A stretch of 60,443 nt of DNA from Elusimicrobiota bacterium (GCA_028714015.1 JAQTNG010000001.1:1-60443), one strand, 5' to 3'; shown: positions 10,214 to 60,443, numbered from the stretch's first letter. Numbers and translations are program-made. The notes: generated by a model from the sequence alone, not told the origin.

Positions 10214-10241
10214 TGGGCCCTCATAGGTACGATGTACGGGA

Positions 10242-13479: not shown

Positions 13480-13518
13480 TCTAGTAGCCTCTCTAGTGCG
13501 TCGTGTACTTCTATCCAT

Positions 13519-13547: not shown

Positions 13548-13560
13548 GTGCTATTTTTGG

Positions 13561-22030: not shown

Positions 22031-23116
22031 TCAGTAATAATACTCGTCCACGATGATGAGGCCGCTGCCGCCGTTGCCGCCGTAGTACGACGCGCCGCCC
22101 GCGCTCGTCGCGCCCGCGCCGCCCGCCCCGACGGAGTAGGAGTACGACGCGGCGGGGGAGACGATCGTCTTCTCCGCGTAGGCGCCCGCGCCGCCGCCGC
22201 CTGGGTAGGCCCAGCCGAGGCCGTAGTAGTTCTCGTTGAAATACGCGCCCGTGCCTCCGGCGCCGGTGTTTGCCGGAGCGCTCGCTCCGGGCAGTATGTA
22301 GGCCAGCGAGCCGTTGAAGTCCACGGCCGGGACGCACGCGAAGCGCGACGCGCCGCCGCGGCCGTTCTTGTTCACGGTCGGGTAGTCGTTGATGCCCGTG
22401 CCGCCCACGCCGCCCGGGATGTTCACGTCGCCGCCGGTGGCGACGCCTCCCGCCCCTCCGACGCCGACCCCGGGGGGAGTGCTCTGTCCGTTCTGCGAGC
22501 CCTGGCCGCCCGCGCCGCCGCCGCAGCTGATGCTGCCGAAAGTCGTCGCGCCGCCTGCCGTGCCGTAGCGGACCGTGTTGTCCGCGCTCCCGCCGCCGCC
22601 GCCGCCGCCGACAGCCCGCACGCGGATCTGCGTACAGCCCGTCGGGGGCACGTAGGTGCCGGACCCCGTGGTCAGGACGGTGCGCGTCGGGCTCTTGGCC
22701 TGGTGCGCGTTGGGGAAGGCGGTCCGCTGCCAGAAGGCGTTGGACGCTCCGGCGGGCGGCGTGTTGTTCAGGTTCGAGTCGACCAGGGAGATATAGATGC
22801 TCCCGCCGTATTGGACGACCGAGTGCAGGTAGTACGTCGTCGTGCTGTTCCACTCGCCGAAACCGTTCTGGAGCAAGTAGGCCAGCTGGTAGAAGATGAC
22901 GTAGTCGACGGCGTTGCGGTCCTGGTAGTACGGGGCGAAGACGCCCTGGTACTGCGCCACGGTCCAGCCGAGCGACCAGGACGCGGTCTGCAGGTCGTCG
23001 GGGTCGGTGCTGTAGACGAGCGCCCCGCCGACCTCCTTGGCGGCGAACTCGCTGATGCCGGTCGCGCCGGCGCTGACGCCGAACAGCTGCGCGGTGACGC
23101 GGGTGATCTTCGCCAT
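22031..23116 (-). CDS. tail fibre protein with glycine-rich C-terminal domain, 361 aa
   Basis: Conserved N-terminus MAKITRVTAQLFG. Gly runs and the terminal GGNGGSGLIIVDEYYY. Paralogue of 23120..23983. Confidence 0.8.
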   Translation of the reverse strand: MAKITRVTAQLFGVSAGATGISEFAAKEVGGALVYSTDPDDLQTASWSLGWTVAQYQGVFAPYYQDRNAVDYVIFYQLAYLLQNGFGEWNSTTTYYLHSVVQYGGSIYISLVDSNLNNTPPAGASNAFWQRTAFPNAHQAKSPTRTVLTTGSGTYVPPTGCTQIRVRAVGGGGGGGSADNTVRYGTAGGATTFGSISCGGGAGGQGSQNGQSTPPGVGVGGAGGVATGGDVNIPGGVGGTGINDYPTVNKNGRGGASRFACVPAVDFNGSLAYILPGASAPANTGAGGTGAYFNENYYGLGWAYPGGGGAGAYAEKTIVSPAASYSYSVGAGGAGATSAGGASYYGGNGGSGLIIVDEYYY

Positions 23117-23119
23117 GGG

Positions 23120-23983
23120 CTAGTAGTAGTACTCCACGATGATGATGAGGCCGGAGCCGCCGCCGTAGGTGCCGGATCCTCCCGCGCCGATCGCGTAGCT
23201 GGTCGCGGTCGGAGAGGCGACCGACCCCTCGACGTAGCCGCCCGCGCCGCCGCCCCCGCCGCCCGAGCCCGAGTTCGCCGCGGCCGCGACGGTCTTGCTG
23301 CCCGCGCCGCCGAAGGGCGACGAGCCACCGTCGGTGCCGCCGACCGCGCCGACGAGGTTGACCGAGCCGCCGCTGGCCGAGCCGCCCGCGCCGCCCGTGT
23401 AACCGCTGGCCGCGCCGCCGCCTCCGGCCGTGAAGCCGCCGAACGTCGTGTCGCCGCCCGCGCCGCCGCTGCCGCCGCCGCCGCCGACCATGCGCACGCC
23501 GATCGCCACGCAGCCCGTCGGCGGAGTATACGTGCCCGAGCCGGACGTCAGCACGGTCGTCGTCGGCTGCGCGCTCATGTTGCGCCAGTCGCTCGTGTGC
23601 GTGTCGGGCTGGTTGCCGGTGTTGTTGTCCGTCAGGGAAATGTAGAACAGACCGCTGTACTGGACGACGGAGCCGATATAGTAGGTCGTGGCCGCGTCGT
23701 ACTCCGCGAGCCCCTGCTGGAGCAGGTAGGCGATCTGGTACGTCGCCACGAGATCCACGCCGTTGCGGTCTTGCTTGTACTCGGAGTTGTTCGTCGCGTT
23801 GAGCGCGGGGCCCCAGCCGTCGGCCCACCACGAGCCGCCGCCGCCGCTCATGATGACGGCAGGGTCCACGGTGTAGTTCGGCGTGCCGCTCAGGACCTTG
23901 GAGCCGAACTGCTCGACCTGGTTCGAGCCGGAGGAGAGCCCTCCGCAGAAGATGCTCGCCGTCTTCCTGATGATCTTGGCCAT
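23120..23983 (-). CDS. tail fibre protein with glycine-rich C-terminal domain, 287 aa
   Basis: MAKIIRKTASIF.. and the terminal GGGSGLIIIVEYYY. Paralogue of 22031..23116. Confidence 0.8.
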   Translation of the reverse strand: MAKIIRKTASIFCGGLSSGSNQVEQFGSKVLSGTPNYTVDPAVIMSGGGGSWWADGWGPALNATNNSEYKQDRNGVDLVATYQIAYLLQQGLAEYDAATTYYIGSVVQYSGLFYISLTDNNTGNQPDTHTSDWRNMSAQPTTTVLTSGSGTYTPPTGCVAIGVRMVGGGGGSGGAGGDTTFGGFTAGGGGAASGYTGGAGGSASGGSVNLVGAVGGTDGGSSPFGGAGSKTVAAAANSGSGGGGGGAGGYVEGSVASPTATSYAIGAGGSGTYGGGSGLIIIVEYYY

Positions 23984-40136: not shown

Positions 40137-42302
40137 TCAGAGCGTCTCGACGACCTGCTCCGGCTTCGGCGGCCCGGCGATGACGTCGCCGCACGCCTCG
40201 CAGCGCCAGCCGTCCGTGGTCTCCTGCGTGGCGATGGTCTCCGTGCTGGAGCCGCCCGCGTTGCAGAGCAGGACCGGGAACGCGCCGTTCATCCGGTCCG
40301 GGTACATGTGCCCGTGGTCGCCGGCGTCGTTGCGCCGGTGGACGAGCTGGACCTCGTGTGCAGCGTGGGCGCCGCCGGGCTCTCGGTCCGCGGCGGTGAC
40401 GGGCTGCCCGCAGGTCAGGCACCACCACTCCTTCTCCCCGGCCGCGTTCTTCTTCGGGCCGATGCCGTGCTCCGTGCCGTGCGGGTCGATCGCCGCGCAC
40501 TTGGGGCACTGGACGTCGTCGCACGTGTCGGGATCGTGCGGGCCGGCCGCGTTGGACTTCGGGTGCGCCTTGAAGTACTCGACGTCGCCCTCGTGCTTGG
40601 CCGCGGCCTCGTGGCTCTCGAAGGTGCCGAGGTTCTTGCCCTCGTGGGACAGGAGGCGGTACTCGTGTTCGCCGAGCTTCTCGATCGTGTTGCGGCGCTC
40701 GCCGGCGTTCTTCCGGTCCATTCCGTAAACGGTTTGATCGCTGCCCACCAGGCCTTCGCGGCAGGCCGCGCCCATGGCATTCTGAGCGATCGTCGAAGAG
40801 AAACCCGCGGCGACGAGCTTGTTTTTCGCTCGATCAAACGGCAGGTCCTTGAACATGTGGAGGTTGCTCTTGATGAAATCGTAGGCCTCCTGCGGCGAGG
40901 TCCCGTTCTTCTTCTCAAGCTCGCTGACCTCGTGCGCGATCCCCTCGACGTGGCGCTCGATCTCGGCGACGTCGCCGCCGGCGTCGTTCTTTTTCCCGGT
41001 CGCGCAGCCCGGCTTGTGCCCCGTCCAGCCGCCCTTGCCGTCCGCGGTCATGGCGTTGCCGCACTCGTTGCAGGTGGCGCTGCCGTTCTTTCGTTCGGGA
41101 TGACGGTCGAGGTAGTCCAGGCACTTCGGGCAGTTTACCTGTCCCGAGCTCTTGGCCAACAGGGCCCCGTCGTTCGTCGTCTTGCCGCACGCCGGCTGCG
41201 TGCCGAGGGCATGGTGCCATACGGTGTCGGCGTTCTCGCGGCCCTCGGGGGGGTGGACCGCGCCGTGCGAGTCGGTGAACGGCGAGTTCACGAACTCGGC
41301 GTCCTCGACGTCGTCGCCGGGCACGAGCTGCGACAGGTCGAGCTTGCCGCCGTCCACCACGAAGACGCGGTGCTTCGAGCCGTCCTCGCCGTAGAAGTCG
41401 TATCCGTCGCCCGTCAGCGCGTCCTTGATGTCGAGCCCCAGCTCCTCCTGCAGCTCGCGGGCGACCGCGGACTCGGCGTCCTCGCCGTTCTCGAGGTGGC
41501 CGCCGGGCAAGAGCGAGCGGCCGTCCTTCTGGCGCGCCGCGATGATGGTGCCGTCGTTCTGGCGGATGAGCGCGCGGGCGGTGAGTGGCTCGGCGTTGTC
41601 CCTGGTGGACAATCCGCCGGCGCCGGCCACGGTGCCGGCCTTCGGGTACACGTGGCCGCAGTGCTCGCAGACGTCCTTTCCGCCCACGATCTTGACGTTG
41701 TGGGGCTCCTGGACGCCCTTGCGGTCGCAGATCGGGCAGTCGGGGTTGGCAGCGTTCATGCGCTCGACACCGGGCTCGATCCCCAGGTCCGCCCCCAGCA
41801 GTCGCAGGTCCTCGAGGGCCTGGGCGACCTCGGCCTCGCGGGCCGGGCGCTCGTGCGCGGGGGCGTTGGGAAGGTCCGCGCGGCGCGCGGCCAGGGCGTT
41901 CTCCAGGACGTGGTACTGCGCCACGGCCTCGGCGTTGTTGCGGCGCTCGATGTTGCGCGGGAAGCCCAGCGCGACGACGTCGCCCATGGACTTCGGCACG
42001 TCGCGCCACGCCCAGGAGGCCACGCTCTCGGCCGGGCGCAGCAGGTCCATTTCCATCTTCTCGACGTCGACCGGGTACACGGCGACGACCTCGTTGCCGA
42101 CGCGGGCCTGGAAGCCCTCCTTGATCGCGTCCTCGGGAGCGCTGAAGCCGAAGAACTCCTCGAGCGCGCGCTTGGCGGCGGCCCGGGCGTCTTCGCCGCT
42201 CTTGAGCTGCGTCGCGGGCAGGACCTCCTCGTCGGCCGAGTTCCTCAGCTCGAGGTGCTGGCCCTGACGGTTCACCAGCAGCGGCATCGCTTTCGTGATC
42301 AT
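40137..42302 (-). CDS. Nudix hydrolase domain protein with several zinc ribbons, 721 aa
   Basis: Perfect Nudix box GHLENGEDAESAVARELQEELGL (aa 268-290, nt 41433-41501). CxxC pairs include CPIC/CEHC, CPKC/CNEC, CPKC/CLTC and CEAC. A degenerate Nudix-like region lies at the N-terminus. Confidence 0.8.
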   Translation of the reverse strand: MITKAMPLLVNRQGQHLELRNSADEEVLPATQLKSGEDARAAAKRALEEFFGFSAPEDAIKEGFQARVGNEVVAVYPVDVEKMEMDLLRPAESVASWAWRDVPKSMGDVVALGFPRNIERRNNAEAVAQYHVLENALAARRADLPNAPAHERPAREAEVAQALEDLRLLGADLGIEPGVERMNAANPDCPICDRKGVQEPHNVKIVGGKDVCEHCGHVYPKAGTVAGAGGLSTRDNAEPLTARALIRQNDGTIIAARQKDGRSLLPGGHLENGEDAESAVARELQEELGLDIKDALTGDGYDFYGEDGSKHRVFVVDGGKLDLSQLVPGDDVEDAEFVNSPFTDSHGAVHPPEGRENADTVWHHALGTQPACGKTTNDGALLAKSSGQVNCPKCLDYLDRHPERKNGSATCNECGNAMTADGKGGWTGHKPGCATGKKNDAGGDVAEIERHVEGIAHEVSELEKKNGTSPQEAYDFIKSNLHMFKDLPFDRAKNKLVAAGFSSTIAQNAMGAACREGLVGSDQTVYGMDRKNAGERRNTIEKLGEHEYRLLSHEGKNLGTFESHEAAAKHEGDVEYFKAHPKSNAAGPHDPDTCDDVQCPKCAAIDPHGTEHGIGPKKNAAGEKEWWCLTCGQPVTAADREPGGAHAAHEVQLVHRRNDAGDHGHMYPDRMNGAFPVLLCNAGGSSTETIATQETTDGWRCEACGDVIAGPPKPEQVVETL

Positions 42303-45475: not shown

Positions 45476-47017
45476 TCAGTTCATGCCCGTATCGTTCGGG
45501 TCCAGGCCGATCAGCACGGAGTCGCGGAGGTCATCGTGCGTCGGGTAGTTGTTCACGAACTGGTACTTGACCGCCGTCTTCAGGATCCCGTCGATGTGCT
45601 TGTTCAGGCGCACGCGGCGGTTCTGAAGCAGCAGCGCTTTGCTCTCGAGGTGGGCCAGCTTGTCGGTCACGGCCGGGAGGACGGTGACGGGCGCGTCGAT
45701 CTGCGAGGCGACCTGGTCGCCGAAGTCGGCGAAGCCGGCAACGGTTTCGATGCGCACCTCGAAGCCTTGGCACGTGGGGAAGCGGTCGCGGTAGAGGCGC
45801 AGCCAGTCTTTGATCTGCTCGATGCGCTTGCCCGGGCTCAGTCGCTCGTTGCGCAGCGCGTCGATCCAGTAGACGGGCAGGCTGCCGTCCGTGCGCTGCG
45901 TCTTGAGCAGCACGCAGAAGCCCGTCGGATCGTTCTCCTGCTTCTTGCCGACGCTCGGGTCGCAGCAGATGAGGACGGCCAGCAAGACGTTGTCGACGCC
46001 GAAGCGGAACTCGAGATCCGGGTCGTATTCCCAGCCGGGCACGTTGAGCCACTCCTCGTGGACGACGGCCTCGGCGTCGCCGCCGCGCACGTTGAGGTGC
46101 TCGCGGTTGAAGATGGTCTGGTTCGTGCCGGGCGCGTTCTGCTTGGCCTTCCAGGCGTCGTAGGAGCGCAGCGCGGGCCACAAGACGGTGGGCGAATCGT
46201 ACCACTTGTACGACTGGCCGCCGTCGTCGGACCGGAACTCGCCGAAGGCGCAGAAGCGGCGGAACTTGGTCGAGGAGCCGGGCATCTTGGCCTTCTCCTC
46301 GAGCCGCTTCATGCCGTCCACGTCGTTGACCGCGGTGCCCTGCCAGCGCCAGATGGACGGGCGGTCGTTGGCCAGCATCGGCTCCAGCGTGGACTCGACC
46401 CAGTCGTTGACGGCCTGCGTCGCCTCGGGGTTGCGGATGTGGTTGTCGTCGTAGGCGTCGTCGAGCATGACGTAGTTCGGCCGCCGCAGGCGGTAGTTGG
46501 TGCCCTTCAGCGACTGGCCCGTGGTGGCGGCCTGGAAGGCGACGCCGTTGCGCAGCACGAACAGGCTGTCGGTCCACTTGTCGCGCCCGACCTGGTCGCC
46601 GTAGAGCAGGCGGATCACGGCGTTCTGCTCCAGCTCCAGCTTGATGCCCATGTTCAACGCCAGCGCTTTCTTCTCGTTGGCCTGGACGTTCAGGTAGTAG
46701 TCGTAGAGCTCCGGTTCCTCAAGCGCCTGGAACAACGGGATGCCTGCGCAGCCGATCGCCGTCTTGGCGTGGTAGCGCGGCGCCTCGAGGCCGCTCTCGG
46801 GCTCGTGGCGCGTGGCCACCTGGTACTCGTGCAGCTCGCACGGCTGCAGGTGGTAGGTGCGCGGGCTGACCGCGTGGAGCCAGCCCAGGATGTCCTTGCG
46901 CGCCGCGCAGCGCTTCGCCTTCTCGGCCCGGCCCTGGACGTTCGCGTCGTTCAACGCCTCCGGCGGCCAGGTGTGCGGGTTCTCCGGGTCGAGCGGGTCC
47001 ACGGCCGCCGCCGTCAA
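45476..47017 (-). CDS. terL: terminase large subunit, 513 aa
   Basis: TTG 47017 overlaps the terS TGA (TTGA). Walker-A-like LEAPRYHAKTA. C-terminal nuclease-like half. Upstream residues of the track ORF are Arg/Gly shadow sequence. Confidence 0.8.
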   Translation of the reverse strand: MTAAAVDPLDPENPHTWPPEALNDANVQGRAEKAKRCAARKDILGWLHAVSPRTYHLQPCELHEYQVATRHEPESGLEAPRYHAKTAIGCAGIPLFQALEEPELYDYYLNVQANEKKALALNMGIKLELEQNAVIRLLYGDQVGRDKWTDSLFVLRNGVAFQAATTGQSLKGTNYRLRRPNYVMLDDAYDDNHIRNPEATQAVNDWVESTLEPMLANDRPSIWRWQGTAVNDVDGMKRLEEKAKMPGSSTKFRRFCAFGEFRSDDGGQSYKWYDSPTVLWPALRSYDAWKAKQNAPGTNQTIFNREHLNVRGGDAEAVVHEEWLNVPGWEYDPDLEFRFGVDNVLLAVLICCDPSVGKKQENDPTGFCVLLKTQRTDGSLPVYWIDALRNERLSPGKRIEQIKDWLRLYRDRFPTCQGFEVRIETVAGFADFGDQVASQIDAPVTVLPAVTDKLAHLESKALLLQNRRVRLNKHIDGILKTAVKYQFVNNYPTHDDLRDSVLIGLDPNDTGMN

Positions 47018-47526
47018 GGCTCGGTCGGCGGCGCCGCGGGAGCGGGCGCAGGCGCGGCCGCCGAGACGGTCGCCGCGGCGGCCCGAGCCGCCTGGACCGC
47101 GGCCGTCGCCGCGATGAAGCGATCCACCTGGGACTCGGTCCACTTGGACATGTCGAGCGGCGGCAAGGCCGGCGTGGGCGGCACCAGCGGCTGGCCTCCG
47201 GCGCCGGTGATCTCCGACAGGCGCGGCATCTGCTGCGCGAAGTACGGCAGGCACAGCGCCAGCAGGCTCGTGTCGTGTTCCCGCGTGACCTTCTCCTTGG
47301 CCAGGACGCGCACGCGCTTCTTGGCGTCCTGCGGATCGAGCTCGTAGACGTAGGTCTTCTCGACGGCGTCGTAGCCCAGCGCGCGCTCGAGCGCCGCGGC
47401 CAGCAGGCGATCGGCCGCCTTCGGGCCCCCGCGCTTCTGCCAGGCGTCGAGGAAGTGCTGGCGCACCTCCGTCGCCTTGTTCGGGGTCCCCTTCTGCCGT
47501 CCGCCGATCCGTTTGCCTTTGGGCAT
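47014..47526 (-). CDS. terS: terminase small subunit, 170 aa
   Basis: N-terminal MPKGKRIGGRQKGTPNKAT DNA-binding-type motif. Position directly upstream of terL. Confidence 0.7.
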   Translation of the reverse strand: MPKGKRIGGRQKGTPNKATEVRQHFLDAWQKRGGPKAADRLLAAALERALGYDAVEKTYVYELDPQDAKKRVRVLAKEKVTREHDTSLLALCLPYFAQQMPRLSEITGAGGQPLVPPTPALPPLDMSKWTESQVDRFIAATAAVQAARAAAATVSAAAPAPAPAAPPTEP

Positions 47527-48694: not shown

Positions 48695-49537
48695 CTATGA
48701 GCGTTCTTTCCGGCAGTCACTGCAGACGATCTCCGAGTGGTGCAGCACGAATTTCCTGACGCCGTCCACGAGCGCGCGGCAGCGGGTGCAGCGGGTGCAG
48801 GGCTTGCAGTAGGGCCACGTGTCGGAGGCCTTCGCGCGGCCGCAACCGTTCTTGCAGAGGCGTTTGGCGCTGTTCGCCTTCCACGCGTCCGTAAGTTCCT
48901 CGCGCCGTTTGAAGGGGAGCTTGCCGAAGTGGGGATGTTCCTCGGGCGGTCGTTCGGGATCTCCCGCCTCCGCACGCGTGCGAGGGGTGTCGTTGTTGAG
49001 GTTGGAAATTTTAATCACGGCGCCGGGTGCGGCGCCTTTATGTTTCTTTCCTTTCTTTACACTCCTTATAGTGAGTGTCCCACGCGTGGGGACAGTTTTG
49101 TCCCCGCCCGTGGGACACTTTTGTCCCGCGCGTGGGGACACTTTGTCCCCGCCCGTGGGACACTCGGCGGGGTCGTTGCCGAGCAAAAACAGCTGCTTGG
49201 ACACGGGCGGTTTGCGGCCCAGCGGCTTCTCGTAAATCCACTGCTCGTGGTCCTTCTGGATCGTCAGCGACCCGTCCTCGTTTCGGACCGCGTGGCGCGT
49301 GCCCAGGAGGGACTCCAGGGCGCGGCCCGCGGCTCCGTTGGACAGGCCCAACGCCTCGGCCAGGGCGCGCACGGAAGTCGGACGCGTGTTCGCGGCGCCC
49401 TTCCAGCCCCAGGAGTGGCGCCAGATCCAGTCCCACAGTTGGCGCGCCGTGACCGTGGCCGGCGGGCACTTGATCAACGCCTCCAGTATTTCATTGGCCA
49501 GCCGCGAGTGGCCGTTTTCGAGTTGGGGGGAGGCCAT
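48695..49537 (-). CDS. replication initiator, lambda O-like N-domain plus Cys-rich C-domain, 280 aa
   Basis: ENGHSRLANEILEALIK..ARQLWDWIWRHSWGWKG resembles the Phage_rep_O N-terminus. Iterons lie inside the linker. The C-terminus has four CxxC pairs. ATG overlaps the radical-SAM TAA. Confidence 0.7.
   Translation of the reverse strand: MASPQLENGHSRLANEILEALIKCPPATVTARQLWDWIWRHSWGWKGAANTRPTSVRALAEALGLSNGAAGRALESLLGTRHAVRNEDGSLTIQKDHEQWIYEKPLGRKPPVSKQLFLLGNDPAECPTGGDKVSPRAGQKCPTGGDKTVPTRGTLTIRSVKKGKKHKGAAPGAVIKISNLNNDTPRTRAEAGDPERPPEEHPHFGKLPFKRREELTDAWKANSAKRLCKNGCGRAKASDTWPYCKPCTRCTRCRALVDGVRKFVLHHSEIVCSDCRKERS
49036..49162. repeat. candidate origin: four 19-bp dyad iterons plus an adjacent AT-rich tract
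   Basis: TGTCCCACGCGTGGGGACA (49076), TGTCCCCGCCCGTGGGACA (49099), TGTCCCGCGCGTGGGGACA (49122) and TGTCCCCGCCCGTGGGACA (49144), spaced 23/23/22 bp. The AT-rich tract 49036-49075 is unusual in this GC-rich DNA. Confidence 0.7.
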
Positions 49538-50592
49538 TAGAGCATCCGCCCCTGCGCCGCGTCCTCGGCGCCCAGCTTCGAGTCCCGCAGCCCTTCCAGC
49601 GTGAACGCAGGCCACGGAAAACGCAGCGATCCGTCGGCGTTCTTGAGCTTATAAAACCGACGGATTACCCAGCGCGCGAACCATTTCAATTCGCGGTCGG
49701 AGTTATTGTAGACCATCGGGTAAGGCAGGATCCCGCGCGCGACCATCCGCTCGAAGCGATAGAACAGACGCGTGTGGGTCTGACGGATTTTGTCGCCGGC
49801 GCAGGCGCGCCACTCCGCAACCTCGACCGGGTCGTAGCCGATGAGCATGTAGGCCATGAGTCGCCGCGGAGAAATGCCAGCGGCCTCGAGCATATCCACG
49901 CCTTTAAAGAATATGCCCTCGTCCTTCAGATTGTCCCATGCAGTATAGAGACGGCGCTGCTGGAACTGGTCGTCATAGTACGGAATGGTCGCCAGCGCAG
50001 CGCAGGCCGCAGGGTCCAACAGGCGCACGTTTAATCCCTGATTGAAGCACACCTTGTAGCCGCCGTCTCGGATCTCCGCGATGCGAGCTTCCCATTGCGC
50101 GCGCGGCTGGCCGAAAAAATCATTGTCGAGGAGGCATATTTTTTTCGGGTGATCGCTCCCGCGCCATATCTCCGCGATCGTGTTGATCGACTTCGGTCGC
50201 CCCTCTTTTTTCGGGACGACGCAGAAGCCGCAAGTCAGCCTGCAGCCCCTCTGGGTGAATCCGAGACTGTAGGCGTAGTCGGGACGGATGGAGTAGTCGT
50301 AATGCTCATACTGGGCGCCGATGACGTCCTCGACAGTAGCCGTGAGGTTCACGCCGGTGCCGCCCAGTATCGCGGAGGGCCACTCGTGCCGGAATGTGGC
50401 AATGGCGGGTTTGCTGAAGCCGAAGATCGCCGAGCCGTAGACGCGGTCATATTCGACCCCGACTTCATCGAGCTGGCGCGTGGTGTGCTTGGTGAAGTGT
50501 ACGGTGTCGCCCTTGGACTTGTGCCAGTGCGACAGCTTCATAAGCGCGAGGTTCGGCAGTTTGCCGTCGAGTTGAGTCAGACGAACGATCAC
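49537..50592 (-). CDS. radical SAM enzyme with a B12-binding-like (Rossmann-like) N-domain, 351 aa
   Basis: GCRLTCGFCVVP is a CxxxCxxC cluster motif. N-terminal LPNLALMKLSHWHKSKGDTV. First gene after P8. Confidence 0.8.
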   Translation of the reverse strand: MIVRLTQLDGKLPNLALMKLSHWHKSKGDTVHFTKHTTRQLDEVGVEYDRVYGSAIFGFSKPAIATFRHEWPSAILGGTGVNLTATVEDVIGAQYEHYDYSIRPDYAYSLGFTQRGCRLTCGFCVVPKKEGRPKSINTIAEIWRGSDHPKKICLLDNDFFGQPRAQWEARIAEIRDGGYKVCFNQGLNVRLLDPAACAALATIPYYDDQFQQRRLYTAWDNLKDEGIFFKGVDMLEAAGISPRRLMAYMLIGYDPVEVAEWRACAGDKIRQTHTRLFYRFERMVARGILPYPMVYNNSDRELKWFARWVIRRFYKLKNADGSLRFPWPAFTLEGLRDSKLGAEDAAQGRML

Positions 50593-52679: not shown

Positions 52680-53060
52680 TCAGTTGTGCGGCCTGTCGAT
52701 GACGCAGTCCATGTCGCAGCCGCAGCCGGCCGGGTGCGGCTGTCCTTCGCGCCATCCCTTCTTTTCGTTCTCGCTCTTGACCCAGCATGGATAGCAGAGC
52801 TTGAGGCGGTTGATCGGCTTGGGCTCTCCGCAGCGGATGCACTTGCCGCCCGTGGGCGGCTTGCGGGCGCGCTTGGCGAGCTCCTCCTCGGATTCTTTCT
52901 CGTCATCCTTGGGCTTGTCCTTCGGTGCCGTGGGTGCTTCCAGTGGAGTCGATGGAGGCGCGGCGGGATCAGCGACCTCGGTCTCGGATAGCACACGCCG
53001 GACTCGCCCCAAGAAAGGCGACCACGTCAGGACCTCGACTTCGCAAATCGTGGCCTTCAT
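52680..53060 (-). CDS. acidic-linker zinc-ribbon protein, 126 aa
   Basis: ATG 53060 overlaps the DUF5131 TGA. CIRC..CYPC..GCGC motifs. Confidence 0.65.
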   Translation of the reverse strand: MKATICEVEVLTWSPFLGRVRRVLSETEVADPAAPPSTPLEAPTAPKDKPKDDEKESEEELAKRARKPPTGGKCIRCGEPKPINRLKLCYPCWVKSENEKKGWREGQPHPAGCGCDMDCVIDRPHN

Positions 53061-54007
53061 CGCGGGAACTCCCGGACCCTCAGCCCCTCGGGCCATTCGG
53101 CCCAGTCGCCGCCTTTGGGGTCGTCGAGCTTGACCGACCAGCCGTTCTCGCTGTTCAAGGCGGACTCCGTCACGCGCTTGTTGACGTCGTAGCGGTCGAC
53201 GCCGATCCACTGCACCGTGCAGCCGTTCCACCACGGGCGGGCGCCGAGCTGCTTGACGAACGGGGCGACGCCCGCTGCGCGGCACTGGTCGATGGTGGAC
53301 TGGGCCCAGGCCACGTCGAACGGCCGCGCGCCGCCGCCAGACTCCCCGCCGACGATGACCCAGTGGAGTCCGGGGACCGTTCGGTATTCTCCGGTATGGA
53401 TGAAATTGGCGTCGCCGCATTCATCCTCACGCCGTTCGCGCATGACCGGCAGGAGCTGTTTCATGTAGGGCTTGAAGTCGACCGGGCCGAGCGCCGGCTC
53501 GTAGCTGACGCCGCGCACGACCGCGGGCACGCGCAGCAGGTGCGGGATCCTGAGATCCGCCTGCGCCTGGTTCTCGGCGGTCGTCATGGCCCACACGTTC
53601 TGGGGCCAGCCGCCGGGCGTCCATCGCACGCCGAAGTGCTTCTCGAAGTTCTCGGGGCGCTTGGTGCAGAGCAGCCACGTCAGGTGGGGCGTGCGCTCGA
53701 TCAGGCGCATGAGGTCGGCGCGCGGCTGGAGCAAGTCCTCGCGGTCCTCGCAGACGTCGGCCAGGGAGGCGCAGAACACGCGGAACGGCTTGCCCGTCTG
53801 CTGGGCCTCGCGGTTCCACTTCAGCGGCTCTTTCCAGTACGACGCGGACGCGTGCTCGCGCTTGGCGTCTTTGCCCCAGATGTTCTTGCCCATCCGCTTC
53901 GACCACGACTCGGCGTAGCAGTGGGCGCAGCCCTCCGACACCTTGACGCAGCCGCGCCAGGGGTTGAACGTCGCGTCGGTCCAAGCTATTTTCGTCTCTT
54001 TGGCCAT
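53057..54007 (-). CDS. DUF5131 / phage Gp37-Gp68 family protein (three-Cys radical-SAM-like), 316 aa
   Basis: IAWTDATFNPWRGCVKVSEGCAHCYA is the family signature, with Cx7Cx2C. Confidence 0.85.
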   Translation of the reverse strand: MAKETKIAWTDATFNPWRGCVKVSEGCAHCYAESWSKRMGKNIWGKDAKREHASASYWKEPLKWNREAQQTGKPFRVFCASLADVCEDREDLLQPRADLMRLIERTPHLTWLLCTKRPENFEKHFGVRWTPGGWPQNVWAMTTAENQAQADLRIPHLLRVPAVVRGVSYEPALGPVDFKPYMKQLLPVMRERREDECGDANFIHTGEYRTVPGLHWVIVGGESGGGARPFDVAWAQSTIDQCRAAGVAPFVKQLGARPWWNGCTVQWIGVDRYDVNKRVTESALNSENGWSVKLDDPKGGDWAEWPEGLRVREFPR

Positions 54008-55618: not shown

Positions 55619-56155
55619 TCAACGCCCCGCCTTGGCCAGCGCGGGCCCCACGACCGAGCCGATCCGGTTGAGCGCCGTCTCCGCGTCGATCTTGCCTTCG
55701 CGCCAGAGGCGAATCTGACGCTCTGCCTCGACTGACGTCTGGTGCAGGTCGTTCGCGGCGATGACGCGCGCGGGCAGCACGGTCGCCAGCGGCTTCGCCG
55801 TGAGGGCGTCGCGCACGATTAGGTAGACCGTGCCGACGTTGTTGCGCTCGTTCGTGACCGTGAGGCCACCGGCGCCAGAGATCGGTGTTTCGGCGGCGAC
55901 GAGCTTGGCCTCCTGTTCCGCCAATTCCTTCGCGTACAGCGCTCGGGAGCCGTCACGGGTCGCGGCCGCCAGTCGCTGCGCGACGTCCTTGTGCCTGGAC
56001 ACGAGCGGGCACGACTTCGGCTTCGTCTCGGTCGAGGCCCACTCCTGGTGGTGCGTCATGCACTGGTAGGGAATCATCGCGCGGCCCACGATCGCGCCGA
56101 GGCCGCTGTCCTTCACATTTCCGCCCTTCGAGATCCGGCACGGTTTCGGTTCCAT
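55619..56155 (-). CDS. hypothetical protein, 178 aa
   Basis: Clean ORF. Confidence 0.7.
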   Translation of the reverse strand: MEPKPCRISKGGNVKDSGLGAIVGRAMIPYQCMTHHQEWASTETKPKSCPLVSRHKDVAQRLAAATRDGSRALYAKELAEQEAKLVAAETPISGAGGLTVTNERNNVGTVYLIVRDALTAKPLATVLPARVIAANDLHQTSVEAERQIRLWREGKIDAETALNRIGSVVGPALAKAGR

Positions 56156-56156
56156 G

Positions 56157-56468
56157 TTAGTGGACCCCCGCGACGGCCTTGGACGAGTTCAGCTCGATGC
56201 GCTCGAGGGCGGCGGCATACAGCGGATGTCCTTTGACGATCCGCGCCCGGCCGTCCTCGAAGTAGTCCGTCATCGCGTCCGAGTTGTTTTCGTAGAGGTC
56301 CGGCATCATCGCCTGGAGGGCCTTCTCGTCGTCGTAGCTTTTGGCGTAGACCGTCACGCACTGCTGGCCGGTGGACTTCAGGGCGAAGGCGGAATAGCTA
56401 ACGCGCGCCTTATGGATGCCGTTGGTGACGTAGTACTTCATGAACCGGATCGTCGTTTGGGTCGTCAT
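56157..56468 (-). CDS. hypothetical protein, 103 aa
   Basis: First gene after P9. Its leader and first codons are nearly identical to those of 12817..13479. Confidence 0.75.
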   Translation of the reverse strand: MTTQTTIRFMKYYVTNGIHKARVSYSAFALKSTGQQCVTVYAKSYDDEKALQAMMPDLYENNSDAMTDYFEDGRARIVKGHPLYAAALERIELNSSKAVAGVH

Positions 56469-56507
56469 TCTAGTAGCCTCTCTAGTACGTCTATGTCCTA
56501 CACCTAT

Positions 56508-56536
56508 ATCTTAACAGGTGACATGTCATCTGTCAA
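56508..56536 (-). promoter_or_regulatory. promoter P9 (TTGACA-17 nt-TAAGAT) with palindromic spacer
   Basis: TTGACA at 56536-56531, spacer GATGACATGTCACCTGT, TAAGAT at 56513-56508. Confidence 0.65.
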
Positions 56537-56769
56537 GTGCTATTTTTGCTCCAGGCCCTGCGAAATTCCGCCACCGCGGCCAGCCCCTCTCCGGCGCCGC
56601 GGCGGAACCGGAGCCAGCCCCCGGAGCGCCGGAGCCACGCGGCGGCCTGCGCGGGCTCGGCGGGGACGTCTTCCCCCTCGACGACGAAGCCGCGCGACGG
56701 GTCGTAGCACACCGCCACGCCCGGCAGGCCCGGCCGGCGGAGCTTGGCGACGTGGACGCGCCCGCTCAT
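56533..56769 (-). CDS. possible small protein, 78 aa
   Basis: ATG 56769. Its TGA stop falls inside the P9 -35 hexamer. Composition is moderately Arg/Gly-rich. Confidence 0.4.
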   Translation of the reverse strand: MSGRVHVAKLRRPGLPGVAVCYDPSRGFVVEGEDVPAEPAQAAAWLRRSGGWLRFRRGAGEGLAAVAEFRRAWSKNST

Positions 56770-56774
56770 CGAGG

Positions 56775-57020
56775 TCAGCCCCCGTAGCGCGCGCGGGCGG
56801 GCTTCTGGCCCGTGGTCACGATCGCGCCCGAGATCCAGGTGGATCGGAAGGGCTGGAAGTAGAACGCCGCCAAGGGCGACGGCCGCGCGGAGTTCGCGCG
56901 GACGCTGGCGAGGGGGTCGATGTTGAGCAGGGCGCAGGTCGCGCACGCGCGCGCCGGGCGCTGGGCGAGCCGCGCGCGCGCGCAGCTCAGGCACAGCTTG
57001 GGGTTCTCGGGTTCGGCCAT
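56775..57020 (-). CDS. small zinc-ribbon protein, 81 aa
   Basis: ATG 57020 follows AGGAG. CLSC..CATC motifs. The track start at 57059 is upstream of the predicted TSS. Confidence 0.5.
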   Translation of the reverse strand: MAEPENPKLCLSCARARLAQRPARACATCALLNIDPLASVRANSARPSPLAAFYFQPFRSTWISGAIVTTGQKPARARYGG

Positions 57021-57065
57021 GATACTCGGGCTCCTAAGGGACGTAGAGGAATGTTTCATGGGGTG

Positions 57066-57094
57066 ACGGTAACAGACGGCTTGTCATATGTCAA
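57066..57094 (-). promoter_or_regulatory. promoter P10 (TTGACA-17 nt-TACCGT)
   Basis: TTGACA at 57094-57089, spacer starting TATGACAAGC, weak -10 TACCGT at 57071-57066. Confidence 0.45.
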
Positions 57095-57234
57095 GTGGAA
57101 ATTGCTCGGTGCCCGCCCAGGAGCCGCTTGGTCGGCACGCCGACCTGGACTGGAGCGCTGGAGTTGACGAGGAGTGCGAAGCCCCGCGGCGTCCGCTGGC
57201 GGCGCTTGCGCGTCCGCCCACCGAGTAGATCATG

Positions 57235-57618
57235 TCACGGCCACGTGATGTCGAACAATCCGAGACGGCCCTTCACGGGCACCGTCTGCGCCAACATCTG
57301 GATGTCCTCGAGGAGCCAGCCGTAGCGCTCCTCTCCCTCCGTGTGCGGGCACAGCCCCTGCGGCACGAGCTCCGGTGTGTAGGCGACCACGTCGCGCAGC
57401 GTCGCGGTGGCGACGACGGCGCCACGCACCAGCTCATACGGGGCCGGGAACAAGATGCTGCGGTCGCGCAAGTAGCGGCCGCCGTGCAGGTCGTAGGCCT
57501 GGCTCGCCGCGATCGCCAGCGGACCTCGGTACTTCGTGCGCCAGGTCCTCGTCTCGATCGTCTTGACGCCGGTGGCCACGAGGTAGGCCCACGGTTGCTT
57601 CAACATGAGGCACTTCAC
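57235..57618 (-). CDS. ASCH domain protein, 127 aa
   Basis: MLKQPWAYLVATGVKTIETRTWRTKYRGPLAIAAS is an ASCH signature. GTG 57618 overlaps the upstream TGA; ATG 57606 is the alternative start. Confidence 0.75.
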   Translation of the reverse strand: MKCLMLKQPWAYLVATGVKTIETRTWRTKYRGPLAIAASQAYDLHGGRYLRDRSILFPAPYELVRGAVVATATLRDVVAYTPELVPQGLCPHTEGEERYGWLLEDIQMLAQTVPVKGRLGLFDITWP

Positions 57619-58409
57619 GCCGGGAGCTCCTCGTCCCGGTAGGACGGGTCGTCCTTGTGGAACTCCTTCGGCGGGATCGGGTGGGTGATGGGGTCCGCCA
57701 ACGGCTTGCCCGTGAGGTTCGAGCAGTGAACGCAGGCCCACTTGTCCGGGGACACGGGACCACGCGCCTGGCACGTCTTCGCGCGATGGCCCGGCACGCC
57801 GCACCGCGAGCACTTATTCTGACGCGGGGGCGTGTCGGCGACGGGAGGCGCGGAGCCGCGGCGCAGCGTTCCCAGCACTTCTCCGAAGACCGCCTCGAGC
57901 TCCTCGCGGATCATCTTGCGCAGCGCGTCGCCCTTGGACGGATCCTGCAGCTGACGCTCGAACCGTTCGTCCGCGATCTTCTCCACGACCTCGATGATAT
58001 TTTTCATTGTTCCTCTGTCGATGACGCCATTCAGAATAATCAGTGCGGCCAGATGGTCCCACTCATTGGATTCTGGGCACGCCTTGGCGACGCGTTCGAG
58101 CGTCCAGGGCTGCGCCGGCCGCGGGGAGGCGCGCAAGACGCCGTCGCGTGTGAGCCTGCCGCCGGAGCGCCAGGAGTTCATCTTGCGGCGCTCCCAGGCG
58201 TCGACGCCGCGGCGGGCGGCCGCAGTGCATTGTCCGACATCCAGCGTGAAGTCGCCGCGCCCCTTCTGCGTCGTCCCGCGGCCGGCTCGGTGTCGGGCTA
58301 GTTCGTTCTTCGCTGCTCGAGTAGCTGTGCTGCGGCCGCCGCGCTCCTTGAGCTGCAGGTAGTAGTCGCGCAGGCCGTCGACCGCCGTCTTGACGAGTGC
58401 GGGGTTCAA
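57615..58409 (-). CDS. protein with a retroviral-type CCHC zinc knuckle, 264 aa
   Basis: CSRCGVPGHRAKTC fits Cx2Cx4Hx4C (aa 200-213, nt 57771-57812). TTG start lies directly after the upstream TGA. Confidence 0.7.
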   Translation of the reverse strand: MNPALVKTAVDGLRDYYLQLKERGGRSTATRAAKNELARHRAGRGTTQKGRGDFTLDVGQCTAAARRGVDAWERRKMNSWRSGGRLTRDGVLRASPRPAQPWTLERVAKACPESNEWDHLAALIILNGVIDRGTMKNIIEVVEKIADERFERQLQDPSKGDALRKMIREELEAVFGEVLGTLRRGSAPPVADTPPRQNKCSRCGVPGHRAKTCQARGPVSPDKWACVHCSNLTGKPLADPITHPIPPKEFHKDDPSYRDEELPA

Positions 58410-60197
58410 TCAATGCGCCGACTCGCCCAGGAATAGGATCTCGGCCGCGCTCAGGTAGCCCTTGCTCGGGTACTCGACGACGCCCAAGGTCTTGAGCTCG
58501 CCGACCAGGCGCGCGTAATAGCCCCCGCCGCCGTCCATCTGGCACGCTTCGGCGACCTCGGGACGGCCGCACGGCTTCGGGTAATGGCGCAGCAAGCACT
58601 CCATCACGCGGCGATGGGAGGCCCCCAGGCGTGCCAGGAGGTCCCCGTGCAGCTGATCCGTCGTCTGAGGCGCCTGCCCGGGCGCCGCCAGCTGGCGCCC
58701 TTGGGCCGTCAGCTCCAGGGCGCCGTTGTCCGGGTAGATGACGAGCCCGGCCGTCTTCAGCTCCCCCACGACCCTGGCGTAGTAGCCGCCCTGCGGCGTC
58801 ACGCCCGAGTACACGGCCACTTGGACGCGCGACGCGGGCAGCACGCCGAGCTGCTCGAGCCGCGCCAGCGAGTTCAGGATCCGGCGGTGCGTCGGGCCGA
58901 TCGCGTTGCCGTCGTCCGGCACGACGTACTCGCGGCGCAGGGTCTTGGGCGGCGCGGTAACATGCCCGACTCGCTCGAGCGCGTAGCTCTTGGGCGGCAG
59001 CTCCTGGGCAGGGAGGCCTGGAGCCTTCACGAATTGGCGCGGCGGTGGGAACGCCTCGGCCAGGTGTCCCCCGATGTAGCGCGCGGAAGCGTGCAGCGCG
59101 GATGCCTCTTTCGTCAACCTCTCGGCGAGAGTCGTCGTCTTGTGGATGAGTTGCTCGACCTGTTTGAGCTCCGACTTCGTCAGCACGGGCACCTCGACGC
59201 GCTGGACCTTCGGCACGGCCGCGGGCTGTTTCGTCTCCGCGCCGTAGAGCTTCTTCTGGAGCTCGACGATCTTGGCCTGCAGGGCCTTCGGGTCCTCGGC
59301 CTTGGCCTTGTCGATGGTGGCCGCCATGGCCTCGCGCAGTTGCACCAGGTCGATGGGCGTCAGGGCGCGCGTGGCGCGGCGCTCCCCGAACTTGGGCGTC
59401 GCCGACGCGTCATAGGTGTCCTTCGGCAGGATGCGGATCTCCTGGTTCACCTTCAGGAACGCCGGGCTCCAGACGTGGCAGTTGCCCGTCTCGAGGCTGG
59501 GCAGCTTCTCGATGACCGACTGGTCGAGGTCGTGCGCGGCGATCCAGTCCTTCATGGCCTTGCGCTCGTGCGCGCCGGTGAGCCGGAAGGCCATGACGGT
59601 CTGACAGCCGTTGAGCGCCTTCTTGTTGATCTCCTGCGGCCGCGGGCTAAGGATGAACGCGCCCATGCCGAAGTTACGTCCGATCTTGATCTGGCGGATC
59701 AGGCGGTGGAGCATCATCTGCTCCCCGGGCTGCGGGTTCTGCGGCAGAAATTCCTGGCCCTCGTCGAACACCACGCAGATGACCGACGGGTCCATCTTCT
59801 TGCGCCGGAACAGCCGCTCGGAGAAATCGGCCACGAAGCGCGCCGTCTGGGCGTCGGTGTCGAACTGGGACACGTCGAGGACCGCGGACAGGTTCTTGTC
59901 GCAGATGAGGTCGGCGATCAACGCGCCGGCCGTCGGCTCGAGGGGGATGTCGCCGTGCAGGCCGCCGAACACGGGGATCTTGAGGCCTTGGCCCTTACCG
60001 TCCTTGGCCAGGCGCAGGCCGTACCACACGCCGACAGGATCCAGAATAACAACCGGGACGCCGGCCTCGAGCATGAGCTCGACGAGCTTCCCGGCGCCGT
60101 GGGTCTTGCCCGAGCCGCGCGCGCCGATCCAGGCGACGGCCTCCGTGCAGATGTCCACGGGCACGTCGAGGGTAGACGACAGGCGCAGCTTTTTCAC
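58410..60197 (-). CDS. HerA/FtsK-like P-loop ATPase with two C-terminal winged-helix repeats, 595 aa
   Basis: Walker A GARGSGKT and Walker B VVFDEGQEF. Repeated GGYYAR(V/L)VGELKT(A/L)G(L/V)V.YP modules. GTG 60197 overlaps the upstream TGA. Confidence 0.8.
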   Translation of the reverse strand: MKKLRLSSTLDVPVDICTEAVAWIGARGSGKTHGAGKLVELMLEAGVPVVILDPVGVWYGLRLAKDGKGQGLKIPVFGGLHGDIPLEPTAGALIADLICDKNLSAVLDVSQFDTDAQTARFVADFSERLFRRKKMDPSVICVVFDEGQEFLPQNPQPGEQMMLHRLIRQIKIGRNFGMGAFILSPRPQEINKKALNGCQTVMAFRLTGAHERKAMKDWIAAHDLDQSVIEKLPSLETGNCHVWSPAFLKVNQEIRILPKDTYDASATPKFGERRATRALTPIDLVQLREAMAATIDKAKAEDPKALQAKIVELQKKLYGAETKQPAAVPKVQRVEVPVLTKSELKQVEQLIHKTTTLAERLTKEASALHASARYIGGHLAEAFPPPRQFVKAPGLPAQELPPKSYALERVGHVTAPPKTLRREYVVPDDGNAIGPTHRRILNSLARLEQLGVLPASRVQVAVYSGVTPQGGYYARVVGELKTAGLVIYPDNGALELTAQGRQLAAPGQAPQTTDQLHGDLLARLGASHRRVMECLLRHYPKPCGRPEVAEACQMDGGGGYYARLVGELKTLGVVEYPSKGYLSAAEILFLGESAH

Positions 60198-60443
60198 TGG
60201 GCGACTCCTATTGGTTCGATGGTCAGTTCCAGCCGCGGGTGGGTCCGATCGAGCGGCAGCTCCTCCCACGCGGGGGACACGAGCAGCTGGTCGTTGACCA
60301 CGAACGGCAGCGAACATCCGGCGCGGCACGCCTTTTTGTACTGCCGCTTCTGGTGGACCGGACACCACTCGAGGACGTGCCACAGCGCGTCCATCATGCC
60401 CGGGACGTCTCGGCCGATGAGGTCGCCGGGCGTGTAGCGCCCC
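60194..60443 (-). CDS. small Cys-containing protein, possibly 5'-truncated by the window edge
   Basis: The track start is ATG 60397 (MMDALWHVLEWCPVHQ..), but the frame stays open upstream to the edge (GRYTPGDLIGRDVPG). Confidence 0.5.
   Translation of the reverse strand, partial: GRYTPGDLIGRDVPGMMDALWHVLEWCPVHQKRQYKKACRAGCSLPFVVNDQLLVSPAWEELPLDRTHPRLELTIEPIGVAQ

Follow-up and report, generated by a model that had tools for sequence, protein, structure and literature searches.

Sequence-directed pumping of double-stranded DNA is exemplified by the gamma domain of FtsK with KOPS and by the winged helix-turn-helix (wHTH) domain of Streptomyces TraB with clt, and TraB is encoded by actinobacterial mobile elements. 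Plasmid and archaeal initiators bind DNA through tandem winged helices, and phages with a lambda-O-type initiator recruit the helicase and polymerase of the host, their own genes for these proteins being normally missing. In this study, we analyzed a 60,443-nt stretch of Elusimicrobiota DNA (the window), for which a first-pass annotation had proposed that an FtsK/HerA-type ATPase, a CCHC zinc-knuckle protein and an ASCH protein, encoded by three neighboring genes, may form a coupled trio that works as an unconventional replication or single-stranded DNA (ssDNA)-handling machine, or else as an anti-defence module.

The best matches of the ATPase in both sequence and fold are the hexameric HerA DNA translocase (for example Sulfolobus HerA, 4d2i) and the HerA subunits of the Sir2-HerA and DUF4297-HerA complexes (8wiv, 8xau, 9c1m), with which it has in common a RecA-like core, Walker A and B motifs, and the motifs G-R-x-(F/Y)-G and (Q/P)-R-P-x-E. 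Unlike HerA, however, it lacks a HAS barrel and has no NurA, Sir2 or DUF4297 gene next to it, it alone bears two winged helices and the long linker before them, and it scores far below the cut-offs of the HerA families. Its match to the HerA proteins of anti-phage systems (Sir2-HerA, DUF4297-HerA and MADS mad8) is partial, and no effector gene is adjacent. The packaging NTPases of the STIV2 B204/PRD1 type, which dock at the capsid vertex of icosahedral viruses that contain a membrane, likewise consist of a bare module of ~210-270 residues without N-terminal accessory domains (TMt 0.76), whereas the ATPase studied here comes from a tailed phage that encodes a terminase of its own, and it carries domains of a DNA-binding type. 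FtsK (gamma) and Streptomyces TraB resemble the ATPase in design, in that a flexible linker joins an FtsK/HerA-superfamily motor to a winged helix at the C-terminus that selects DNA, although homology of the C-terminal parts is not demonstrated; in contrast to both, the ATPase has neither an FtsK_SpoIIIE Pfam match nor a membrane anchor, and its winged helix is tandem rather than single. The FtsK/TraB winged helix reads a DNA repeat, whereas no candidate repeat for the two wHTH-like modules of the ATPase was found near its gene. Large terminase subunits combine an ATPase with an RNase-H-like nuclease and are encoded beside the portal, and the ATPase of the window shows neither the nuclease nor the portal adjacency.

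The knuckle protein has the same Cx2Cx4Hx4C spacing as the CCHC knuckles of retroviral nucleocapsid and SF1, but its knuckle is a lone one in a mostly helical protein of 264 aa with no other recognizable domain. The ASCH protein scores above the cut-off of Pfam ASCH, and its residues 3-117 can be aligned with the ASCH domain of human ASC-1; compared with ASC-1/TRIP4 and E. coli YqfB, it is small, stands alone and comes from a phage (phrog_3193, a family of unknown function).

Organization of the locus

All three genes of the proposed trio lie on the minus strand, and their coordinates and features match the earlier description. The elements of the locus are as follows.

60194-60397, minus strand: 67-aa gene upstream of the ATPase gene; stop TGA and ATPase start GTG overlap as GTGA; GC3 0.85
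58410-60197, minus strand: ATPase gene, 595 aa, GTG start, FtsK/HerA superfamily, two C-terminal winged helices
57615-58409, minus strand: knuckle gene, 264 aa, TTG start abutting the ATPase TGA
57235-57618, minus strand: ASCH gene, 127 aa, GTG start overlapping the knuckle TGA (GTGA)
57061-57095, minus strand: promoter-like element, one of six TTGACA...palindrome copies, opening the next transcription unit

The three genes are indeed joined by abutting or overlapping (GTGA) stop and start codons, as had been noticed. The 67-aa gene, which gave no match in a Pfam scan and whose homologs in the related loci L070 and L072 are 53-66% identical to it, shows the same kind of overlap with the start of the ATPase gene; therefore, the chain comprises four genes. 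Downstream of the ASCH stop codon, about 140 nt are non-coding, and the ASCH gene closes its transcription unit, since the promoter-like element at 57061-57095 opens the next one. Among the 70 adjacent gene pairs of the window, 24 are spaced by -10 to +5 nt. Tight junctions are thus common in this genome and, taken alone, a weak pointer to function. A sensitive blastn search with positions 56000-60443 returned no match among deposited phages, and examination of the DNA near the trio genes for iterons or a loading site yielded just short repeats at chance level and the promoter element.

A minimal FtsK/HerA core followed by tandem winged helices

The ATPase had been described from its sequence as a 595-aa FtsK/HerA-type P-loop protein carrying GARGSGKT (residues 25-32) and VVFDEGQEF (residues 142-150). 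This call is correct, and both HMM and structure searches place the protein in the FtsK/HerA superfamily. Its homologs start at the same residue as the GTG-initiated 595-aa reading (alignment A1). Along the gene, the parts of the protein are arranged as follows.

59388-60197, minus strand: ATPase core, residues 1-270, pLDDT 90-98
60102-60125, minus strand: Walker A, invariant in A1
59748-59774, minus strand: Walker B, invariant in A1
59667-59681, minus strand: GRNFG, invariant in A1
59631-59648, minus strand: RPQE, invariant in A1
59232-59348, minus strand: segment of residues 284-322 (LxPIDL...MAATIxKAKAEDPKxL), helical in the model
58908-59177, minus strand: long helix (residues 341-382), then variable disordered linker (385-430), from model and alignment
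58428-58895, minus strand: tandem winged helices, WH1 (residues 435-505) and WH2 (513-590), pLDDT 85-96

Walker A, Walker B with its acidic pair, GRNFG and RPQE show no variation across 34 aligned homologs, and the latter two motifs align with the GRKYG and SQRPSE motifs of solved HerA chains, which were also retrieved by the profile search (4.5e-13). The AF2 model (mean pLDDT 84) was matched by Foldseek to HerA 4d2i (1e-11), 8woc (TMt 0.54) and STIV2 B204 (TMt 0.76), with probability 1.00 for 4d2i, 8woc and 4kfr. DUF87 and AAA_10 are the best Pfam families, and PF01580 (FtsK_SpoIIIE) is not among the Pfam matches at E<=1. The HAS barrel is missing: Walker A begins at residue 25, only two short strands precede it in the model, and matches to HerA profiles begin at about position 400 of 560-580. 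On the NCBIfam helicase_HerA model, the protein reaches 26.4 bits (cut-off 970). Because just 24 residues lie ahead of Walker A, there is no space for an N-terminal transmembrane anchor.

A DNA-packaging role is suggested by a match to phrog_2666, labelled 'terminase large subunit' (9.9e-15), and by likeness to PRD1/STIV-type NTPases, with Foldseek connecting the model to STIV2 B204 and to the packaging ATPases of corticoviruses, PH1 and A32-like viruses. We nevertheless regard this role as extremely improbable. The phrog_2666 match spans 182 of 555 profile positions, no nuclease domain was found by Pfam or in the model, and the gene is missing in close relatives and belongs to the early region, with 11 kb between it and the packaging genes. 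Moreover, the window encodes a protease, an HK97-type major head protein, a portal and, beside the portal, a canonical large terminase at 45476-47254 (phrog_38, 5e-28), and on this ground the ATPase was rejected as the terminase.

Beyond the core, residues 284-322 are near-invariant across the 34 homologs, and residues 385-430 have pLDDT values below 50 and correspond to gapped, unconserved alignment columns. The two C-terminal winged-helix-like repeats reported earlier are real. When residues 431-508 are aligned with residues 509-595, the local score is 121, compared with 25.7 +/- 4.9 for shuffled sequences (n=500), and GGYYAR(V/L)VGELKT.G.V.YP is present in both repeats. The ATPase profile also gives weak matches to the wHTH chains of DtxR, MntR and MarR. 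Across the 34 homologs, the C-terminal modules are far less conserved than the core. An exhaustive search with the winged-helix module retrieved 1,303 cluster representatives (50% identity level, E<=1e-10), in which the module sits nearly always at the C-terminus of proteins of ~590 aa. Matches of 150-460 aa were considered as a separate architecture and rejected, as most of them start inside the ATPase or look truncated. One apparent domain swap (P0023, with a core 74% identical and a different tail) is a frameshifted copy. Thus, the protein is built on a minimal FtsK/HerA-superfamily core that lacks a HAS barrel; after it come helices, then a disordered linker, and finally the tandem winged helices.

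Distribution and neighborhoods of the ATPase family

Metagenomes contain at least 994 full-length relatives of the ATPase, and a further 13 were found on plasmids of actinobacteria, but only one among 50,697 deposited phage genomes. The family occurs in Gemmatimonadota, Acidobacteriota, Verrucomicrobiota, Actinomycetota, Myxococcota, Chloroflexota and Pseudomonadota. The family is common in soil phages and actinobacterial plasmids and missing from cultured phages. No characterized member was found in the literature.

Gene neighborhoods were analyzed in 62 non-redundant ATPase loci. The neighbors are inconstant: the most frequent neighbor family occurs in at most 12 of the 62 loci, and the gene directly downstream of the ATPase changes from locus to locus almost without exception. 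The nearest neighbors are early-region genes, such as those for tyrosine recombinases (9 loci), ParB-like proteins (5-8) and DUF5131 proteins (5-10), along with methyltransferases, RusA, RecT, Gam and HNH proteins, and a DnaB-type helicase is encoded nearby in at least one locus. NurA is not among the 25 commonest neighbor families listed for each of two sets of 150 ATPase neighbors. Membership in mycobacterial plasmid conjugation loci was also considered. On some plasmids the ATPase gene adjoins FtsK/SpoIIIE genes, but the link is inconsistent, and the pRAW paper makes no mention of such an ATPase gene (PMC4173767). The ATPase family is a large, uncharacterized group of phage and plasmid proteins resembling DNA motors, whose members come and go independently of their neighbors.

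These distributions, together with the model matches, bring in the alternative that the ATPase is a conflict factor, either an early-region anti-defence protein or a device of phage/plasmid exclusion or defence, in which a HerA-type motor with winged-helix sensors would act against nucleic acid of the host or of competitors, or against defence complexes. Its presence differs between close relatives, it is common to phages and plasmids, and the orphan methyltransferase, ParB-like, DUF5131, HNH and Gam genes nearby are typical of early or leading regions. The best model matches are anti-phage HerA proteins (PADLOC 5.8e-16, NCBIfam 1.2e-7), and the C-terminal modules are much more variable than the core. 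On the other hand, the defence-HerA matches span only the second half of the core (residues 105-291 in PADLOC) with a score of 30.9 bits against a cut-off of 850, no Sir2, DUF4297 or other nuclease effector adjoins the ATPase in the 62 loci, and the gene is co-oriented within an early operon rather than being a separate insert with its own signals. A conflict role is a possible but rather unlikely explanation.

The ATPase is separate from the knuckle-ASCH pair

The three domain calls on which the coupled-trio proposal was built are right, and so is its description of the knuckle as a perfect Cx2Cx4Hx4C site. The knuckle (CSRCGVPGHRAKTC, residues 200-213 of the 264-aa protein, 57771-57812) is the single match to this pattern across the six frames of the window, and its four ligand residues are invariant in all seven members of the family. 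Pfam zf-CCHC (PF00098) gives 17.9 bits, below its cut-off of 20.8, and the AF2 model of the protein (pLDDT 50) is uninformative. One further element of this gene may be listed.

57657-57734, minus strand: possible second site in the knuckle protein, Cx2Cx13Hx7H

The third protein scores 23.0 bits with Pfam ASCH (PF04266; cut-off 21.2), matches phrog_3193 at 2.9e-33, and is aligned with the human ASC-1 ASCH domain at 4e-7. Its homology begins exactly at the GTG, and a 192-aa ORF is an upstream extension of the 127-aa gene.

The coupling of all three genes, in contrast, did not survive the comparison of loci. A knuckle gene lies near the ATPase in 3 of the 62 loci and an ASCH gene in 10, at variable positions, and the three genes occur together in three. 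Conversely, three of the six knuckle contexts have no ATPase, and all three are Rep_O-type phages of the same lineage. In the closest syntenic relative, L074, whose flanking genes are 75-84% identical to those of the window, the order is RusA-knuckle-ASCH and the ATPase is absent, as it is beside the knuckle genes of L070 and L069; the contigs of these three loci are not among the top ATPase matches listed. The order ATPase-knuckle-ASCH is kept in L072 and L001, with an HNH gene between the ATPase and knuckle genes in L001.

It had been argued that the window has an O-like initiator and no recognizable helicase, primase or polymerase, and that the trio might stand in for the missing proteins. 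At the Pfam level this description of the scanned genes holds, and the Rep_O-like gene is found elsewhere in the window, away from the trio genes. The overlapping or abutting codons, the identical gene order in two relatives and the fact that the initiators of plasmids and archaea, too, bind DNA with tandem winged helices also agree with the proposal. However, O-type initiators normally use the host helicase and polymerase, a DnaB-type helicase is encoded near the ATPase in at least one locus, equally tight junctions are frequent throughout the window, and both the scarcity of the knuckle gene near the ATPase and the intervening HNH gene count against coupling. A machine made of all three proteins is very unlikely, and the comparative data already contradict the model. 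The proposal had named two findings that would speak against it, namely that the neighbors are unlinked in relatives and that the ATPase belongs to a characterized family with a known phage role. The former was found for the ATPase across the 62 loci; the latter was not, because no member of the family has been characterized. Hence, the ATPase, the knuckle protein and the ASCH protein are not one machine, and the ATPase is separate from the knuckle-ASCH pair.

As a conserved pair, the genes for the knuckle and ASCH proteins do travel together. Their 4-nt overlap recurs in five of six knuckle contexts (including L001, L070, L072 and L074), which makes them a real unit; in the remaining context, a MazG gene takes the place of ASCH. 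The pair is translationally coupled and limited to one small phage lineage.

The same relatives bear on a further reading, in which the ATPase would be an ATP-dependent transcription regulator acting at the palindromic operator of the six repeated promoters. Enhancer-binding proteins have such a layout, with DNA-binding domains placed C-terminal to an ATPase, a palindrome could be recognized by two winged helices of the same chain, and the window offers six copies of the promoter with its palindrome. Yet the operator core TGACATGTCA is found in L074, which lacks the ATPase, and is missing from L001 and L072, which both have it, a distribution that contradicts binding of the ATPase to the repeated palindrome. 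In addition, the fold is of the FtsK/HerA type and not AAA+. Regulation of this kind is highly improbable.

A tentative role for the ATPase

Our preferred reading, to which we assign a probability of roughly 45%, is that the early operon ends in two independent units and that the ATPase is an accessory ring-shaped DNA motor, targeted by its winged helices, that works on the element's own DNA. The first unit would be the ATPase itself, a self-contained accessory gene with which the phage can dispense. Like its structural relatives, the protein most likely assembles into a ring that travels along double-stranded DNA, or remodels it, at the expense of ATP, and the two winged helices on their long flexible linker most likely pick the DNA substrate. 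It may act on the DNA of the element soon after entry or during replication and recombination, where it could, for instance, clear, segregate or resolve intermediates. In the second unit, the knuckle protein is probably a nucleic-acid-binding adaptor that works with ASCH as a reader or enzyme, and the adaptor role is a guess, because the model of the knuckle protein has low confidence.

Several points weigh against a motor acting on the element's own DNA. The ATPase has no N-terminal membrane-anchoring extension, unlike FtsK and TraB, and neither a HAS barrel nor a nuclease partner, unlike HerA; the DNA near the gene contains no repeated motif at which such a motor could load; and the winged helices could bind protein instead of DNA. 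A dispensable and variable gene shared by phages and plasmids would also fit a defence or anti-defence role.

In its broadest form, the interpretation would make the family an unrecognized class of mobile-element motors, in which a stand-alone FtsK/HerA ring is steered by tandem winged helices and serves either in DNA segregation or resolution with ParB-like proteins or recombinases, or as a single-gene pump or stripper in anti-defence or exclusion. This generalization is unlikely as it stands.

Implications

With the trio not being a system, the idea of an exotic replication machine falls away. The knuckle-ASCH pair represents a small, lineage-restricted case of a retrovirus-type zinc knuckle in phage. 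Annotation of the ATPase family would also improve once its function is worked out, because databases label its members 'HerA helicase', 'DUF87' or, through a partial PHROG match, 'terminase'. The family joins the simplest FtsK/HerA motor with a tail resembling a sequence reader and occurs in both phages and plasmids, and knowing what it does would extend the still short list of mobile-element DNA pumps.

A four-gene cluster containing the ATPase

Every confidently coding ORF in the window is on the minus strand, and the window's high-coordinate end carries four genes with no spacing between them:

60194-60397, minus strand: 67-aa gene, first of the chain
58410-60197, minus strand: 595-aa ATPase, GTG start overlapping the upstream TGA as GTGA
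57615-58409, minus strand: 264-aa knuckle protein, TTG start immediately 3' of the ATPase TGA
57235-57618, minus strand: 127-aa ASCH protein, GTG start overlapping the TGA of the knuckle gene

These coordinates and junctions confirm the observation, made in the first-pass annotation, that the last three genes are joined, and every motif quoted there was found in the window's proteins. The C-terminal repeats of the ATPase align with each other at a score ~19 standard deviations over shuffles, and the Cx2Cx4Hx4C string of the knuckle protein occurs once in the six frames of the window. Downstream of ASCH lie ~140 nt of non-coding DNA and a promoter-like element, so the four genes end a transcription unit. 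Gaps of -10 to +5 nt separate 24 of the 70 gene pairs in the window; with tight junctions this common, the abutting codons of the cluster carry little functional weight.

Sequence and predicted structure of the ATPase

Matches of the ATPase to Pfam DUF87 and AAA_10, of its residues ~105-290 to the HerA models of NCBIfam and PADLOC, and to phrog_2666 (labelled terminase; 182 of 555 positions) were all partial and sub-threshold. A profile of 34 ATPase homologues matched solved HerA chains at 4.5e-13. The AlphaFold model (mean pLDDT 84) is organized as follows:

Residues 1-270: compact core
Residues 284-322: conserved helices
Residues 341-382: long helix
Residues 385-430: disordered stretch
Residues 435-505 and 513-590: two winged-helix modules

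Foldseek grouped the core with HerA translocases and the STIV2 minimal packaging NTPase B204, and matches in the viral library were restricted to this core. Walker A, Walker B, GRNFG and RPQE are invariant in the homologues, so the protein is expected to be catalytically active. Unlike HerA, it has no HAS barrel; unlike FtsK and TraB, it leaves no room for a membrane anchor; and a nuclease domain is absent. Its FtsK/HerA-type module is intact and minimal and has a pair of winged helices tethered to it.

The knuckle and ASCH genes form the conserved pair

Among 5.8 billion proteins searched, the knuckle family has only seven members. Six gene contexts were compared.

Gene order around the knuckle gene in the window and five related loci
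Window: 67aa-ATPase-knuckle-ASCH
L072: 67aa-ATPase-knuckle-ASCH
L001: RusA-ATPase-HNH-knuckle-ASCH
L074: RusA-knuckle-ASCH
L070: DUF5131-knuckle-ASCH
L069: DUF5131-55aa-knuckle-MazG

The 4-nt overlap between the knuckle and ASCH genes is kept in five of these six contexts, and the two genes are the real pair. By flanking genes, the closest relative of the window is L074 (RecT 75%, DUF1643 79%, others up to 84% identity). Its contig, as large as the window, has no ATPase at the RusA-knuckle junction and was not found among the top-listed ATPase matches. In L001, the closest ATPase relative, the gene between the ATPase and knuckle genes (11798-12181) encodes a 127-aa HNH-like protein, and in another locus, L063, a comparable HNH gene comes after the ATPase. 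DUF5131 lies upstream of the knuckle gene in L069 and L070, immediately adjacent in the latter.

The knuckle itself is invariant in the family, and six of the seven members have a second motif, Cx2Cx13Hx7H. Most of the protein is helical, its model is poor, and its knuckle weakly resembles those of retroviral nucleocapsids and SF1. The ASCH protein clearly belongs to its family. At most, the pair can be described as a putative nucleic-acid-binding adaptor together with an ASCH reader or enzyme; MazG in place of ASCH in L069 may point to a link with nucleotide or modified-base metabolism.

Neighbourhood and distribution of the ATPase

Across 62 non-redundant loci with a full-length ATPase, the gene immediately downstream differs in almost all, and the commonest neighbours are ordinary early-region genes, each in a minority of loci. 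Pfam counts over the nearest two to four genes on each side gave tyrosine recombinases (9), ParB-type proteins (5-8), DUF5131 (5-10) and methyltransferases; HNH, RusA, RecT and Gam also occur. DUF5131 is the most frequent neighbour family elsewhere (10-12 of about 62 loci); the window's own DUF5131 (Gp37/Gp68) gene lies at 53057-54007. The knuckle protein was near the ATPase in 3/62 loci and ASCH in 10/62, lying -8.9 kb to +7 kb from it. These counts and the ATPase-less L074 do not support the coupled trio proposed initially, of which the domain assignments and the knuckle-ASCH pair stand. Given the variable neighbours and L074, the ATPase is a cassette gained or lost independently. The idea that the three proteins form an unconventional replication machine is largely rejected, because sister phages sharing the Rep_O-type initiator lack the ATPase and one other locus has a DnaB-type helicase close to it.

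Large ParB-type proteins (370-634 aa) are encoded <~1.2 kb from the ATPase in six of the 62 loci (L015, L016, L018, L021, L038 and L063). In one database protein, P0131 (782 aa), a ParB N-terminal domain is fused to a degraded ATPase and tandem winged helices; it probably represents two adjacent genes brought together by a frameshift.

Metagenomes contain at least 994 full-length relatives (about 590 aa), none bearing a name, and genome bins from many phyla carry the family. The C-terminal module alone yielded 1,303 cluster representatives at E<=1e-10, in which it nearly always terminates a protein of ~590 aa; short matches appear truncated. Of 50,697 deposited phage genomes, only that of an uncultured virus has a relative, annotated 'hera helicase'. 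Thirteen full-length relatives reside on plasmids of Mycolicibacterium, Mycobacterium, Clavibacter, Gordonia, Tsukamurella and Gemmatirosa. On the actinobacterial plasmids L101 (Tsukamurella), L102 (M. intracellulare), L007 (Clavibacter pCSL1) and L103, the ATPase adjoins FtsK/SpoIIIE-domain (EccC-like) genes, and DUF1643, DUF6283, HNH and cytosine methyltransferase genes are repeatedly found close by; the window, too, has DUF1643 (3101-3604).

The window as a phage genome

Besides portal, head protease and major head protein genes, the window contains RecT, a DUF2779 protein, DUF1643, DUF5131, three DNA methyltransferase-type genes, SpoVG-like, HAD_SAK_2 and amidase genes, and the following:

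45476-47254, minus strand: canonical large terminase
48695-49615, minus strand: Rep_O-like gene (Pfam 2.4e-5, under the cut-off)

With a canonical terminase present, a packaging-motor role for the ATPase was rejected. The Rep_O-like initiator gene immediately precedes a lipoprotein gene and the terminase genes; in L069, L070 and L072, Rep_O is in the early region near the knuckle-gene site (in L072 near the ATPase too). The genes scanned, a subset of the window's ORFs, contained no recognizable integrase, helicase, primase or polymerase. A 721-aa protein adjoining the portal (40137-42302), with a NUDIX hydrolase segment at residues ~245-318, is a possible enzyme-bearing head or ejection protein. 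GC-rich imperfect repeats (GCCGCC-type; 22100-23900) within 361-aa and 287-aa tail-region genes would encode glycine-rich repeats on the coding strand.

In relatives, homologues of the low-coordinate genes (45-586, methyltransferases, DUF2779, RecT) are found immediately 5' of the ATPase or knuckle gene; those of 45-341 and 401-586 are immediately 5' of the ATPase or RusA in L001, L072 and L074. Thus, the two ends of the window join, which places the ATPase inside the early region and not at a genome terminus. No terminal repeat was seen in the window. As 1-600 and 60194-60443 are contiguous in relatives, the window is probably a complete genome that is circularly permuted or was opened at an arbitrary point.

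A sigma-70-like promoter with an embedded palindrome (minus-strand sequence TTGACAGATGACATGTCATCTGTTATTATA) is present in six copies:

560-594, 7547-7581, 10237-10271, 13514-13548, 56503-56537 and 57061-57095, minus strand: repeated promoter

The palindrome is probably a shared operator controlling early units, and its core, TGACATGTCA, has two further copies in L074. The ATPase was rejected as its regulator: the palindrome occurs in the ATPase-less L074 and is absent from the ATPase-bearing L001 and L072.

Proposed role of the ATPase

The ATPase is autonomous and dispensable, and is carried by phages and plasmids amid early DNA-metabolism and DNA-modification genes. In the FtsK/HerA superfamily, the characterized members assemble into rings that pump or remodel dsDNA, and a C-terminal winged helix is the DNA selector in FtsK and TraB. 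Tentatively (probability roughly 0.35-0.45), we suggest that the ATPase would form a ring acting as a motor on the phage's or plasmid's own DNA, to which the winged helices would target it, during establishment, replication or recombination. The main rival, a conflict role either in anti-defence, as also suggested initially, or in exclusion, agrees with the patchy distribution and the neighbourhood, but it is considered less likely, with neither an effector partner nor a full match to any defence HerA. The ATPase represents a new, widespread variant inside a known superfamily.
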